64,000 bases of DNA from a virus (Duplodnaviria > Heunggongvirae > Uroviricota > Caudoviricetes), in IMG/VR virus record IMGVR_UViG_2718217859_000010, one strand, 5' to 3'. The position numbers were made by a program. The stretch's first letter is position 1. Each line of letters opens with the position of its first letter. Shown here piece by piece: positions 12,001-18,000 of this stretch.

Positions 12001-15000
12001 GATAAGGCACAGGAACCAAATCACTATTATGAATTTAATTTCACTATAGTAAATTTGATAACTCGTTTTGTATCTCAAAACACAAGCAACGACCACTTTA
12101 AGGGAGATAACATGTTAAAAATCAGAATGTCGCGACCATCTGAAGCACAAGAAATTATCCAAATTTGGAAAAATTCCGTGTAACCGGCTCATTTAAACCG
12201 TCTGGTCTGTTTCCTCCGGCTCTACAAAAATAATGTCCATCATTTTTAATGGACACTATCGTATGAAACACCGGACCTGGATCACTGAAGCTTTACGTCT
12301 TCACTTTGAAGAACATTTACCCCGGGTTGTGGCCGGGCGTCGCCTGGGTGTACCAAAATCAACAGTTTGTAGTATGTTCGTGCGCTTTCGGAGAGCTGGC
12401 CTTTCGTGGCCTTTGCCCGCAGGCATGTCGGAGCAGGAACTTGATGCCTGCCTTTACGGACAATTTTCCACGGTACCAGTCGTACGTCCTGAAAGCACCG
12501 TTATATCCGAAGCCCCCGTGGTAAAAAAACGTCCCCGGCGGCCCAACTTCCCTTATGAGTTTAAAATCGCCTTAGTGGAGCAGTCACTGCAGCCCGGAGC
12601 CTGTGTGGCGCAGATCGCCCGGGAAAACGGAATCAACGATAACCTGCTCTTCAACTGGCGCCATCAATACCGGAAAGGTGGCCTGCTGCCTTCCGGAAAA
12701 AATATGCCGGCACTGCTTCCCGTGACGTTAACGCCGGAGCCGGATAATAAAATCCCGGCCCCCGCACAGGAACCAGAGCAGATAAATACACCGTCCGACA
12801 GTCTGTGTTGTGAGCTGGTTCTGCCGGCCGGAACTCTCAGGCTTAAAGGTAAACTGACGCCGGCGTTATTACAGACACTTATCCGCGAAATAAAAGGGAG
12901 CAGCCACTGATGATATCTCTCCCTGCAGGTTCGCGTATCTGGCTGGTTGCAGGTATCACCGATATGCGAAATGGCTTTAACGGCCTGGCATCAAAAGTTC
13001 AGAACGTCCTGAAGGATGACCCGTTCTCCGGACACCTGTTCATCTTCCGCGGACGCCGGGGTGACCAGATAAAAGTGTTGTGGGCTGACAGTGACGGACT
13101 GTGCCTCTTCACCAAACGCCTGGAGCGGGGCCGCTTCGTCTGGCCAGTCACCCGTGACGGCAAGGTGCACCTTACTCCGGCTCAGTTATCCATGCTTCTT
13201 GAAGGTATCAACTGGAAGCACCCGAAACGAACGGAACGCGCTGGAATCCGCATATAACCCGTTGTAAAGTGAGGATATGGACACCTCACTTGCTCATGAG
13301 AACGCCCGCCTGCGGGCACTGTTGCAGACGCAACAGGACACCATCCGCCAGATGGCTGAATACAACCGCCTGCTCTCACAGCGGGTGGCGGCTTATGCTT
13401 CCGAAATCAACCGGCTGAAGGCGCTGGTTGCGAAACTGCAACGTATGCAGTTCGGTAAAAGCTCAGAAAAACTTCGTGCAAAAACCGAACGGCAGATACA
13501 GGAAGCACAGGAGCGAATCAGCGCACTTCAGGAAGAAATGGCGGAAACGCTGGGTGAGCAATATGACCCGGTACTGCCATCCGCCCTGCGCCAGTCTTCA
13601 GCCCGTAAACCGTTACCGGCCTCACTTCCCCGTGAAACCCGGGTTATCCGGCCGGAAGAGGAATGCTGTCCTGCCTGTGGTGGTGAACTCAGTTCTCTGG
13701 GATGTGATGTGTCAGAGCAACTGGAGCTTATCAGCAGCGCCTTTAAGGTTATCGAAACACAACGTCCGAAACAGGCCTGTTGCCGGTGCGACCATATCGT
13801 GCAGGCACCAGTACCTTCAAAACCCATTGCACGCAGTTATGCCGGAGCGGGGCTTCTGGCCCATGTTGTCACCGGGAAATATGCAGACCATCTGCCGTTA
13901 TACCGCCAGTCAGAAATATACCGTCGTCAGGGAGTGGAGCTGAGCCGTGCCACACTGGGGCGCTGGACAGGTGCTGTTGCTGAACTGCTGGAGCCGCTGT
14001 ATGACGTCCTGCGCCAGTATGTGCTGATGCCCGGTAAAGTCCATGCTGATGATATCCCCGTCCCGGTCCAGGAGCCGGGCAGCGGTAAAACCCGGACAGC
14101 CCGGCTGTGGGTCTACGTCCGTGATGACCGTAACGCCGGTTCACAGATGCCCCCGGCGGTCTGGTTCGCGTACAGTCCGGACCGGAAAGGTATCCATCCA
14201 CAAAATCACCTGGCCGGTTACAGCGGTGTGCTTCAGGCCGATGCTTACGGTGGTTACCGGGCGTTATACGAATCCGGCAGAATAACGGAAGCCGCGTGTA
14301 TGGCTCATGCCCGGAGAAAAATCCACGATGTGCATGCAAGAGCGCCCACCTACATCACCACGGAAGCCCTGCAGCGTATCGGTGAACTGTATGCCATCGA
14401 GGCAGAGGTCCGGGGCTGTTCAGCAGAACAGCGTCTGGCGGCAAGAAAAGCCAGAGCCGCGCCACTGATGCAGTCACTGTATGACTGGATACAGCAACAG
14501 ATGAAAACACTGTCGCGTCACTCAGATACGGCAAAAGCGTTCGCATACCTGCTGAAACAGTGGGATGCACTGAACGTGTACTGCAGTAATGGCTGGGTGG
14601 AAATCGACAACAACATCGCAGAGAACGCCTTACGGGGAGTGGCCGTAGGCCGGAAAAACTGGATGTTCGCGGGTTCCGACAGCGGTGGTGAACATGCGGC
14701 GGTGTTGTACTCGCTGATCGGCACATGCCGTCTGAACAATGTGGAGCCAGAAAAGTGGCTGCGTTACGTCATTGAACATATCCAGGACTGGCCGGCAAAC
14801 CGGGTACGCGATCTGTTGCCCTGGAAAGTTGATCTGAGCTCTCAGTAAATATCAATACGGTTCTGACGAGTCGCTTACAATTCCGTTGATGCCACACACG
14901 ATTTTCTTACAGCCCATGACCGGCAGGAGATTGAAAAAGAAGTTGTCAGCTTTTTTTCAGAAACCCCTGTGCTGATAGCAACAAACCAGGAAGATCAGCC

Positions 15001-18000
15001 ACTAGGATTCATGTTTTTGCATGAGGGACATTTAGAGGCTCTTTTTGTTGATGCGTCAGCTCGCGGACTTGGCGTCGGGAAACATCTGATCTCACATGCG
15101 CTGGCTCTACATCCTGATCTAAGCGTTGATGTAAATGAACAAAATCATCAAGCTGTAGGTTTTTATCAACATATGGGCTTTAAACTTTCAGGACGTTCCG
15201 AGCGGGACAATCAAGGCAGACCCTACCCTCTATTACATCTTTATAAGGCAATGTGACATGATTATTTTAGGAGAATTACATCATGGATTTTTTTGACTGA
15301 AAGCGACAATGTAAGAACAACTCTGGCCGCTATCCGGGTTTCTCATTTGGTACTCGCTGGCAAAGGTAAGAGCAAGACAATCACCGGCTTGTAAATGCTG
15401 AGTCTGATGATTGACTCGAAAATCAAGGCTGCCGCTTAACATCCATAGAGTTTGTCCAGAAAGATGCTCATTTGCAGAGGCAGGGATAGTCAATTGCCCC
15501 ATAGGGGGGATTTCAACTTTTATTAGTTCCGGACATGCACCCGCTGGGGACAAAGACCAGCGGGTAATGCCTGTTTCTTCATCAATCCAATGTTGTTGCT
15601 GGTCAGTCAAAAGTACAAGTGAATTCTGTTGCATCTCAAGCTCTGCAAAAAGCTTTGATAGCGTAATATTCAGTGCATTAGCTAACCGACTAAGTATTGT
15701 TGCACTGGGGCTTGAAGTGCCTCGTTCAACTTTGCTGATCATCGCCTGACTGACACCAGATCGTTGGGCAAGCTCTGTAACAGTCAAGTTTCGAGACTTT
15801 CTGAGCTTGAGTAACAAACGTGCAATATCGCTATCGACTATCTGATTTTTAGCTCTTTTATCCATTCTTCTCCCCTCTTTCACCGACCTGATTATGCCAT
15901 TACATAAATTGCGATTAAATAAATGATTTTACACGTCTCAAATGCATTTTTTCTATACGTTATAGCTTTAGAGTAAGAGCTGGTAACTTCAACTTCCGTA
16001 TTTGGCACATAACAGTCCTGGATACAGTGACGCACAGTTTCTTTACAAAAACATAGCTACATAGAGGTTGATCATCGTGTCAAATGTACTGTAGAAATAC
16101 CTACAATAATATTTTTTTGCTAATATGCGTATAAATGAATAACTATAGACAGATAAAAATATCAGCAAAAAGAAAATTTCCAGCACATTAAACCACAACA
16201 ATAATACAACACTTGGCAAGTTGACCATAAAGAATGAATAAAACGAAACAATAATTCAAACTTAAACAAACTATAAACAGTTAAACAATATACAATTGAC
16301 TCATTAAGTTAGATATAAAAAATACATATTCAATCATTAAAACGATTGAATGGAGACCTTTTATGCGGGCGAAACTTCTGGGAATAGTCCTGACAACCCC
16401 TATTGCGATCAGCTCTTTTGCTTCTACCGAGACTTTATCGTTTACTCCTGACAACATAAATGCGGACATTAGTCTTGGAAATCTGAGCGGAAAAACAAAA
16501 GAGCGTGTTTATCTAGCCGAAGAAGGAGGCCGAAAAGTCAGTCAACTCGACTGGAAATTCAATAACGCTGCAATTATTAAAGGTGCAATTAATTGGGATT
16601 TGATGCCCCAGATATCTATCGGGGCTGCTGGCTGGACAACTCTCGGCAGCCGAGGTGGCAATATGGTCGATCAGGACTGGATGGATTCCAGTAACCCCGG
16701 AACCTGGACGGATGAAAGTAGACACCCTGATACACAACTCAATTATGCCAACGAATTTGATCTGAATATCAAAGGCTGGCTCCTCAACGAACCCAATTAC
16801 CGCCTGGGACTCATGGCCGGATATCAGGAAAGCCGTTATAGCTTTACAGCCAGAGGTGGTTCCTATATCTACAGTTCTGAGGAGGGATTCAGAGATGATA
16901 TCGGCTCCTTCCCGAATGGAGAAAGAGCAATCGGCTACAAACAACGTTTTAAAATGCCATACATTGGCTTGACTGGAAGTTATCGTTATGAAGATTTTGA
17001 GCTAGGTGGCACATTTAAATACAGCGGCTGGGTGGAAGCATCTGATAACGATGAGCACTATGACCCAGGAAAAAGAATCACTTATCGCAGCAAAGTCAAA
17101 GACCAAAATTACTATTCTGTTGCAGTCAATGCAGGTTATTACGTAACACCTAACGCAAAAGTTTATGTTGAAGGCGCATGGAATCGGGTTACGAATAAAA
17201 AAGGTAATACTTCACTTTATGATCACAATGATAACACTTCAGACTACAGCAAAAATGGTGCAGGCATAGAAAACTATAACTTCATCACTACTGCTGGTCT
17301 TAAGTACATTTTTTAACGAAGTTAACCAGATTTTCTCCCGGGTGGTATTGTATAACCCCGGGGAATTTGTTTACAGTTACAAGTAGACAATATCCACTAA
17401 TTTTGTAAGCATTTAACCTATGTCATAACGTGTAATCTCTTACCGCAACACAAGACCTCAATATATTCAAATTTTATCTTTATTCCGATATTCAGAGACA
17501 CAATGCGAAAAATAATTACTCATTTCAAAGTTGTTTTAACGTTACTTCTACCAGTAACCGTATCTGCCCAGCAGATACAGTGGCAATCCTGTATGGCCAG
17601 TCAATTCAACCACTGGTTTGGTGAGGAAAAACCGTCTCCTGACTTACTATGTGGTTATTTGTCTGTTCCATTAAAATATACAGACACAGGCGGAGATGCT
17701 TCTTATGAAAAAAAATCACAAGTCAAACTAGCGTTGACAAAATTGCCGGCAAAAAGCAAGCATAAAGGAAGTATCCTGATAATAAGTGGTGGTCCCGGGT
17801 TACCAGGCATAAATCCTTATATTAACTTTGACTGGCCAGTCACAAATCTTCGTGAGTCATGGGATATTATTGGATTTGATCCTCGAGGCGTCGGACAGTC
17901 CACTCCGACAATAAACTGCCGGCAATCAGATACAGAGACTCAGGAAAACATAACCGGAAAGCAACAAGTATTAAATAAAATTAATGCCTGTATCCATAAT

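Follow-up and report, generated by a model that had tools for sequence, protein, structure and literature searches.

The IS66 family of insertion sequences has imperfect terminal inverted repeats starting with 5'-GTAA as a family trait, and its members reportedly share a common order of the genes tnpA, tnpB and tnpC, an overlap between the first two genes, and a set spacing of the third. One member, ISCro1, was first named from Citrobacter rodentium and is common on the chromosomes and plasmids of Escherichia coli. The target duplication generated by IS66 is given as 8 bp (PMC6778807). In E. coli, experiments support a lysine acetyltransferase activity for YjaB that is lost when Y117 is mutated, and yjaB is reported to be monocistronic (PMC6199490). 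Here, we describe a locus at which such an element and a phage-borne relative of yjaB meet. Within the window, a 64,000-nucleotide stretch of DNA from a tailed virus (Caudoviricetes; IMG/VR record IMGVR_UViG_2718217859_000010), an active copy of ISCro1 has almost certainly inserted itself at codon 23 of a GNAT gene that resembles yjaB and is carried as cargo by a prophage at thrW.

The ISCro1 copy and its boundaries

By its sequence, the element is an intact member of the IS66 family, specifically ISCro1. It extends over 2699 bp (12180-14878, + strand), with boundaries set by comparison with the empty site of E. coli GB089. The name derives from the PGAP product names of proteins encoded by identical copies, which specify WP_000381395.1, WP_001339397.1 and WP_000624622.1, all assigned by PGAP to the ISCro1 family. 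Six other 2699-bp copies, from which the present one differs at 0-2 positions, carry the PGAP names ‘IS66-like element ISCro1 family transposase’, tnpA, and tnpB, and identity is complete (2699/2699 bp) to the ISCro1-annotated copies of E. coli N96 and plasmid p94_0962-3.

The initial annotation had recognized an IS66-type unit of three genes, and the curated profiles agree: tnpA, tnpB and tnpC are all intact, lie in the same orientation, and each exceeds the cut-offs of the IS66 models in Pfam and NCBIfam. The first gene, tnpA (12233-12910, + strand), encodes the 225-aa accessory helix-turn-helix protein (PF01527, 8.6e-15; NF038385 IS66_access_TnpA, 295.8 bits against a cut-off of 150), and its stop codon overlaps the ATG of tnpB by one base (TGATG). 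The second, tnpB (12910-13257, + strand), encodes a 115-aa accessory protein of the IS66 Orf2 type (PF05717, 4.7e-40; NF033819, 128.9 bits). Finally, tnpC (13277-14848, + strand) encodes the 523-aa IS66-family DDE transposase (PF03050, 2.5e-103; NF033517, 477.9 bits against a cut-off of 180); the PF03050 match spans 283 of the 284 profile positions, and leucine-zipper, zinc-finger, DDE, and C-terminal domains are all matched (PF13007, PF13005, PF03050, and PF13817).

The element ends in a left terminal inverted repeat, GTAACCGGCTCATTTAAACCGT (12180-12201, + strand), and a right one, GTAAGCGACTCGTCAGAACCGT as read on the - strand (14857-14878), both found by inverted-repeat search. The two are imperfect, as had been noted initially, matching at 16 of 22 positions inside the element and starting with GTAA at both ends; the score of 17/23 returned by the repeat search arises because one flanking base was counted in. 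Taken by itself, the pair is statistically unremarkable, since the same search yielded many 20-nt pairs at 70-75% identity. It coincides exactly with the insertion boundaries, and the same ends recur in the six other ISCro1 copies.

Immediately outside these ends lie the two copies of a perfect 8-bp target-site duplication, AATTCCGT, at 12172-12179 and 14879-14886, both delimited by comparison of the flanks as well as by the empty site. Identity between the flanks ends at exactly eight bases, and a chance match of two 8-mers has a probability of about 1.5e-5. The duplication is genuine rather than a chance match because GB089 carries the intact gene, identical at 438/438 positions, with a single AATTCCGT; the earlier claim of a duplication at the IS ends is thereby upheld, and the prospect that the flanking 8-mers might prove not to be a true duplication did not materialize. 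Each of the six other ISCro1 copies is likewise flanked by a perfect 8-bp duplication of its own. A target-site consensus was suspected from top BLAST matches that reached 7-16 bp into the flanks, and was discarded upon finding no common motif among the seven duplications. As a separate observation, their composition is AT-rich, at 30% GC, in a sample that is skewed by ranking on flank similarity.

The split acetyltransferase gene

The flanks had been proposed to join into a single GNAT-like ORF of about 146 aa; the in-frame ORF is there, while its length is 145 aa. With the IS and one copy of the duplication removed, a 5' fragment (12112-12179, + strand), comprising codons 1-22 and two bases of codon 23, joins a 3' fragment (14887-15256, + strand), placed by the joined ORF, Pfam, and structural alignment and encoding residues 24-145, to give 438 nt in frame. 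The reconstructed ORF is identical throughout (438/438) to the intact, annotated WP_001364131.1 gene of E. coli GB089, which supplies the intact acetyltransferase that had been suggested as worth seeking in related prophages. The ATG is preceded, at a distance of 7 nt, by a GGGAG ribosome-binding site. In its disrupted state, the 5' fragment translates as MLKIRMSRPSEAQEIIQIWKNSV and is followed by a TAA from the IS end. The 3' fragment, which retains both the catalytic Tyr116 and the RGLGVG of motif A, is left with neither a start codon nor a promoter. Scans for promoters and terminators in the vicinity yielded signals at or below shuffle expectation, none of them usable. A fusion of TnpC to GNAT was also considered and rejected, since two stop codons separate the two within their common reading frame.

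On sequence comparison, the protein of the split gene is a GNAT and a paralogue of E. coli YjaB. The reconstructed protein matches three Pfam acetyltransferase families above their cut-offs, namely PF13673 Acetyltransf_10 (7.5e-14, 52.3 bits, cut-off 23.6), PF00583 Acetyltransf_1 (6.4e-11, 43 bits, cut-off 20.7), and PF13508 Acetyltransf_7 (2.2e-10, 41.2 bits, cut-off 27). The acetyl-CoA-binding motif A, (Q/R)-x-x-G-x-(G/A), is present as R82-G-L-G-V-G87 and aligns with RGCGVG of YjaB, and Tyr116 aligns with the YjaB catalytic Tyr117; the motif check proposed in the initial annotation therefore supports the GNAT assignment. Against the YjaB structure (PDB 2KCW), the protein aligns with 55% identity over 140 aa (E=3.2e-49), and it scores 234.5 bits against the YjaB equivalog model NF007807 (PRK10514), for which the cut-off is 134, residues 1-142 aligning to profile positions 2-143 of 147. 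By analogy with YjaB, the intact phage-borne GNAT would probably act as a protein lysine acetyltransferase. An identity of 55% to YjaB does not guarantee that the phage-borne enzyme has the same substrates.

About 350 bp separate the gene from the distal att of the lambdoid prophage, about 51 kb long, within which it lies. This prophage is integrated at thrW, the tRNA-Thr(CGT) gene (62557-62632, - strand), and is bounded by 48-bp att repeats, of which the distal copy (11713-11760) corresponds to the 3' part of thrW and matches 62555-62602 at 48/48 positions; between the repeats are genes for the integrase (61379-62542, + strand; PHROG matches), terminase, portal, capsid, tape measure, J, and tail fibre. 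On its upstream side, the GNAT gene is parted from the att site by 350 bp of non-coding DNA. Downstream, and convergent with it, lies the gene for a 200-aa regulator (15281-15883, - strand) with an Xre-family helix-turn-helix domain (PF01381, 5.7e-17) and a weak match to Cupin_2, which is the conserved neighbour of the GNAT gene in every relative examined. Together with the gene for the omptin protease OmpT (16363-17316, + strand), identified as an ORF whose homologues are annotated ompT in GB089, CB9615, Combat2C1, and PhiR29_1, and one for an alpha/beta hydrolase, these form a four-gene cassette flanked by the tail-fibre genes on one side and the distal att on the other.

Course of the insertion and alternative readings

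The insertion is an ordinary, well-understood event and is already explained. An active ISCro1, equipped with the DDE transposase TnpC and the accessory proteins TnpA and TnpB, would have entered codon 23 of the yjaB-like gene, and staggered cleavage of the target followed by repair would have produced the 8-bp duplication. The first bases of the element, GTAA, place a stop codon right after Val23, leaving the remaining 122 codons devoid of a start codon or ribosome-binding site, so that the enzyme is lost. This loss was probably neutral for both phage and host. No result speaks against this model, whose weak points are all functional. A megablast search with positions 11900-15500 of the window against 5426 complete E. 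coli genomes did not recover the same insertion; an apparent full-coverage match in strain N96 proved to be an artefact of joined pieces: in that strain the GNAT gene is intact, and a separate ISCro1 sits in an integrase remnant about 570 bp upstream of it. The left junction, searched for by exact match, was likewise missing from the GTDB representative genomes, and both ISCro1 and its two flanks are without divergence from the reference copies. The insertion is thus probably recent, a judgement based on zero divergence and on the absence of the junction from the sampled genomes rather than on a dated phylogeny. The GNAT gene itself is intact in 105 complete genomes (approximately 2% of complete E. 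coli), and in about 276 genomes, mostly O157:H7, a remnant consisting of its last ~95 nt is found next to an IS3-family element.

Two alternative readings concern the nature of the gene. Its position at the extreme edge of the prophage could suggest that it is an ordinary gene of the chromosome and simply neighbours the prophage, as could the core chromosomal status of yjaB, its nearest characterized relative (PMC6199490). However, the gene falls within the 48-bp att repeats, and in different strains the cassette occupies three unrelated chromosomal positions (paoD/thrW, envY-ybcH-nfrA, and yecD-aspS), always joined to lambdoid tail-fibre genes; in O55:H7 CB9615 it adjoins envY-ybcH-nfrA, a junction that we take to be the K-12 DLP12 end. 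The deposited 46-kb phage genomes PhiR29_1 and PhiR29_2 also include the cassette (99.3% amino acid identity). Because the cassette is found at thrW, at two further positions on the chromosome, and in these phage genomes, it is phage cargo; the GNAT gene is accessory prophage cargo (a moron), as the initial annotation had held, and the chromosomal reading is refuted, retaining virtually no probability. The same annotation had hinted that the enzyme might be a toxin or a resistance determinant, so that the IS would have relieved the toxicity of a TacT/AtaT/ItaT-like member of a toxin-antitoxin pair or removed an antibiotic-modifying activity. General precedent for such GNAT morons near att sites is the sole support for this proposal, apart from the helix-turn-helix protein that adjoins the gene. 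That neighbour, however, is the convergent Xre-cupin regulator rather than a small, upstream, operon-borne antitoxin of the RHH/DUF1778 type, and no such small ORF adjoins the gene at the locus. The protein fits best in the YjaB equivalog family, whose cut-off it exceeds; Pfam yielded no toxin, resistance or defence family for it, no NCBIfam model for toxin-antitoxin or aminoglycoside-acetyltransferase families matched at E<=0.001, the only resistance-type NCBIfam model listed was ArsN1, at 21.4 bits against a cut-off of 170, and a PADLOC search for defence systems returned no match to the protein. With the intact gene also kept in 105 complete genomes, a toxin or resistance role is rejected as highly improbable.

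Other readings concern the consequences of the insertion. It is conceivable, though quite improbable, that the insertion was adaptive and selected, either tnpC read-through into the convergent Xre-cupin gene or the loss of GNAT altering expression of the ompT cassette or the behaviour of the prophage. In favour of this, tnpC and the 3' fragment are co-oriented, with no terminator-like site from the tnpC stop codon to the convergent regulator; the remnants beside the IS3-family element might point to recurrent loss; and ISCro1 altered transcription of the adjacent afa genes in ST131 (PMC8764528). The insertion is nevertheless unique among the 5426 complete genomes, which gives no hint of a sweep, the remnants in O157:H7 share a clonal ancestry and therefore count as one event, and a dispensable gene would equally show repeated loss. 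A further and similarly improbable proposal is that the phage-borne YjaB paralogue, perhaps under control of the Xre-cupin regulator, may serve in lysogenic conversion as a lysine acetyltransferase acting on proteins of the host or of superinfecting phages, in which case the separate IS-associated losses (through ISCro1 here and the IS3-family element in O157:H7) would reflect selection in some lineages against this activity and not neutral decay.

Comparison with known systems

The locus is best annotated as an ISCro1 element and a yjaB-like acetyltransferase pseudogene instead of two short hypothetical ORFs, and it provides a clean pair of empty and occupied ISCro1 sites, the element measuring 2699 bp and the duplication 8 bp. 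It also marks the GNAT member of a widespread lambdoid cassette (GNAT/Xre-cupin/ompT/hydrolase) as dispensable, and touches on a biological question, the role of a phage-carried lysine acetyltransferase of the YjaB type for the lysogen. Outside of correct annotation, the finding matters little.

Compared with known copies of ISCro1, the element is the same and its new insertion site is the sole difference. With the IS66 and IS679 prototypes, it shares the tnpA-tnpB-tnpC arrangement, including the overlap of tnpA with tnpB and a tnpC located ~20 bp downstream, as well as imperfect terminal inverted repeats that start with GTAA and an 8-bp target duplication; ISCro1 is, however, another member of the family, and its TnpA, at 225 aa, is longer. 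E. coli YjaB and the GNAT protein are of nearly equal size (147 and 145 aa), with the 55% identity extending over 140 of 145 residues, and have in common motif A, the catalytic tyrosine (Y117 in YjaB, Tyr116 in GNAT), and a place above the NF007807 equivalog cut-off. Whereas yjaB is a core gene and monocistronic, the GNAT gene is phage-borne and accessory, is intact in only ~2% of complete E. coli genomes, and adjoins an Xre-cupin regulator. Finally, the DLP12-type lambdoid end of K-12 and its relatives likewise carries ompT as cargo in the interval from the tail-fibre genes to the distal att, but the prophage described here is located at thrW and its cassette keeps the GNAT and Xre-cupin genes.

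The insertion and its empty site

The inserted block occupies 12180-14878 (2699 bp) and is abutted on both sides by the 8-mer AATTCCGT, at 12172-12179 and 14879-14886, with identity between the flanks extending over exactly eight bases; the target duplication of IS66 elements is likewise 8 bp (PMC6778807). Its ends form imperfect inverted repeats, GTAACCGGCTCATTTAAACCGT and GTAAGCGACTCGTCAGAACCGT, which match at 16 of 22 positions and lie exactly at the insert boundaries, as the initial annotation had described (a repeat-pair listing scores these ends 17/23 because one flanking base is counted in). 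Inverted repeats of equal quality are common locally, many similar pairs being listed in the same region; the weight of this pair derives from its exact boundary position and its identity in other copies of the element. An ORF listing and a reading of 11700-15700 revealed three co-oriented ORFs with a short ORF fragment on each side: tnpA (12233-12910, +; 225 aa; NF038385, 295.8 bits against a cut-off of 150; PF01527), tnpB (12910-13257, +; 115 aa; PF05717, 4.7e-40; NF033819) and tnpC (13277-14848, +; 523 aa; PF03050, 2.5e-103; NF033517, 477.9 bits). The stop codon of tnpA overlaps the start codon of tnpB by one base (TGATG), and tnpC begins 20 bp beyond tnpB. All three products exceed curated Pfam/NCBIfam cut-offs, bearing out the proposed IS66-type three-gene unit, and the tnpC product also contains the IS66 leucine-zipper, zinc-finger and C-terminal domains by profile search. 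GTAA termini and a three-ORF layout are reportedly traits of this family.

Near-identical copies were recovered by megablast in their thousands from E. coli chromosomes and plasmids, where the PGAP labels read 'IS66-like element ISCro1 family transposase', tnpA and tnpB; judged by these labels, the inserted element, present once in the window, is the known and abundant ISCro1. All six other copies fetched are exactly 2699 bp long, with 0-2 differences from the window copy, and each is bounded by its own perfect 8-bp duplication (CTTAAAGA, CAAATTGC, ACATATCC, TATGAATC, AATTCACA, TATATTCC). The copy in E. coli N96 (L002 12001-15712; duplication CTTAAAGA) is identical to that of the window (0/2699 mismatches) and sits in an integrase remnant ~570 bp upstream of the GNAT gene, which is intact there; it represents another ISCro1 insertion in this neighborhood, independent of the first. 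The seven target duplications examined (window 12172-12179; L002 and L007-L011) are AT-rich, with 30% GC overall, as are their flanks. This may point to a target preference, in a sample biased by the fact that similarity of the flanks to the query had put these copies at the head of the ranking.

Joining 12112-12179 to 14887-15256 yields an in-frame ORF of 438 nt; the single GNAT reading frame initially proposed stands, with a length of 145 aa in place of roughly 146. When the reconstructed empty site was searched against 5426 complete E. coli genomes, intact versions were found, among them an annotated acetyltransferase gene of E. coli GB089 (WP_001364131.1) identical to the reconstruction at 438/438 positions. 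The uninterrupted GB089 junction (...GGAAAAATTCCGTTGATGCC...) contains AATTCCGT only once, and the 8-bp repeat is therefore a true target-site duplication, generated by simple transposition with the target DNA wholly kept.

The prophage and its cargo cassette

ARAGORN identified a single tRNA, tRNA-Thr(CGT) (62557-62632, - strand), whose 3' 48 bp recur without mismatch at 11713-11760. An integrase gene (61379-62542) lies just inside the tRNA end, followed inward by genes for the large terminase, portal, major head protein, tape measure, J and tail fiber, and last by those for an alpha/beta hydrolase, OmpT, an Xre-cupin regulator and the GNAT enzyme. The element between these att repeats is thus a lambdoid prophage of ~51 kb, integrated at thrW. 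The GNAT start codon lies ~350 bp inside the distal att copy, in agreement with the initial annotation, which put the gene just inside the left att. The block of four cargo genes is joined to lambdoid tail-fiber genes at three different chromosomal sites, beside paoD/thrW (GB089, N96), envY-ybcH-nfrA (O55:H7 CB9615) and yecD-aspS (Combat2C1). Escherichia phages PhiR29_1 and PhiR29_2 (46-kb genomes) carry the gene near the genome end (99.3% protein identity; depositor's label 'putative N-acetyltransferase YjaB'), and phage Evi has a version with 86.8% identity. The att repeats, the occurrence in several chromosomal contexts and the presence in phage genomes refute the view that the gene is chromosomal and not of phage origin; the GNAT gene is prophage cargo, as first suggested.

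From att to att (11761-62602) the prophage measures ~50.8 kb, the 2.7-kb IS included. Lambda-type heads have an upper packaging limit of ~51 kb, which this size approaches, and the IS may therefore affect packageability of the prophage. The cassette hydrolase (17503-18987, +; 494 aa) matches phrog_20134 (unknown function) over its full length and also the PADLOC candidate defense model C3a206, 'TAP-like protein' (187.8 bits). Rfam matches in the prophage at the gathering threshold comprise STnc100 sRNA (48191-48408), IS009 (19250-19447), C4 antisense RNA (56016-56103) and isrK Hfq-binding RNA (56128-56204), all on the - strand.

A separate ~12-kb island fills the part of the window to the left of this att copy (1-11712), with genes for a 'phage baseplate' protein (512-1189, -), a 613-aa product of unknown function (1237-3078, -), a major capsid protein (3465-4493, -) and a small serine recombinase (9849-10406, +). 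In other strains, e.g. E. coli 2013C-3264, this island lies directly beside thrW; island and lambdoid prophage are therefore in tandem here, with the att copy at 11713-11760 common to both. The island may be a phage satellite.

Loss of the acetyltransferase

ISCro1 entered after base 2 of GNAT codon 23, where the IS-end GTAA finishes a Val codon and then gives TAA, leaving a 5' fragment product of 23 residues. The 3' fragment shares the tnpC frame, with two stop codons between, and the earliest start codon in its frame is the GTG at 14969, at which no Shine-Dalgarno sequence was visible on reading. The insertion thus inactivates the enzyme.

Of the 5426 complete genomes, 105 have the gene at full length, always on the chromosome; this ISCro1 insertion is present in none of the 5426, and the IS/GNAT junction was not found in GTDB representative genomes. 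Zero divergence in the IS, duplication and flanks, together with this uniqueness among sampled genomes, indicate a probably recent, strain-level event. A further ~276 complete genomes, mostly O157:H7 among the matches listed, retain no more of the gene than its final ~95 nt. In the one remnant genome inspected, O157:H7 TR01 (L012 2733-4095), the remnant directly abuts IS1203 (IS3-family) beside intact Xre-cupin, ompT and hydrolase genes; here the cargo gene was lost in an event distinct from that in the window, again in association with an IS.

Interpretation and relation to YjaB

The suggestion that the GNAT might be a toxin or resistance enzyme is not supported: NCBIfam and PADLOC returned 0 TA-toxin, AAC or defense family matches for it, and an antitoxin-like partner is absent, the neighbor being a convergent 200-aa Xre-cupin regulator. 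An adaptive or regulatory effect of the insertion is conceivable but unlikely; a terminator scan detected no terminator-like site between tnpC and the convergent regulator, and ISCro1 altered neighboring transcription in ST131 (PMC8764528). The finding of the initial annotation is real and its interpretation essentially right: in textbook fashion, an abundant and already known IS has inserted into a prophage cargo gene that is dispensable and belongs to a known family.

The reconstructed protein scores above the cut-offs of three GNAT Pfam families and of the NCBIfam equivalog NF007807 (234.5 bits vs 134), and contains the acetyl-CoA-binding motif A (R82-G-L-G-V-G87). In vivo, E. coli YjaB behaves like a protein lysine acetyltransferase, and activity is lost on mutation of its Tyr117 (Y117A, Y117F; PMC6199490). 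The YjaB structure 2KCW matches the reconstructed protein with E=3.2e-49 and 55% identity over 140 residues, and Y117 of YjaB aligns with Tyr116 of the window GNAT.
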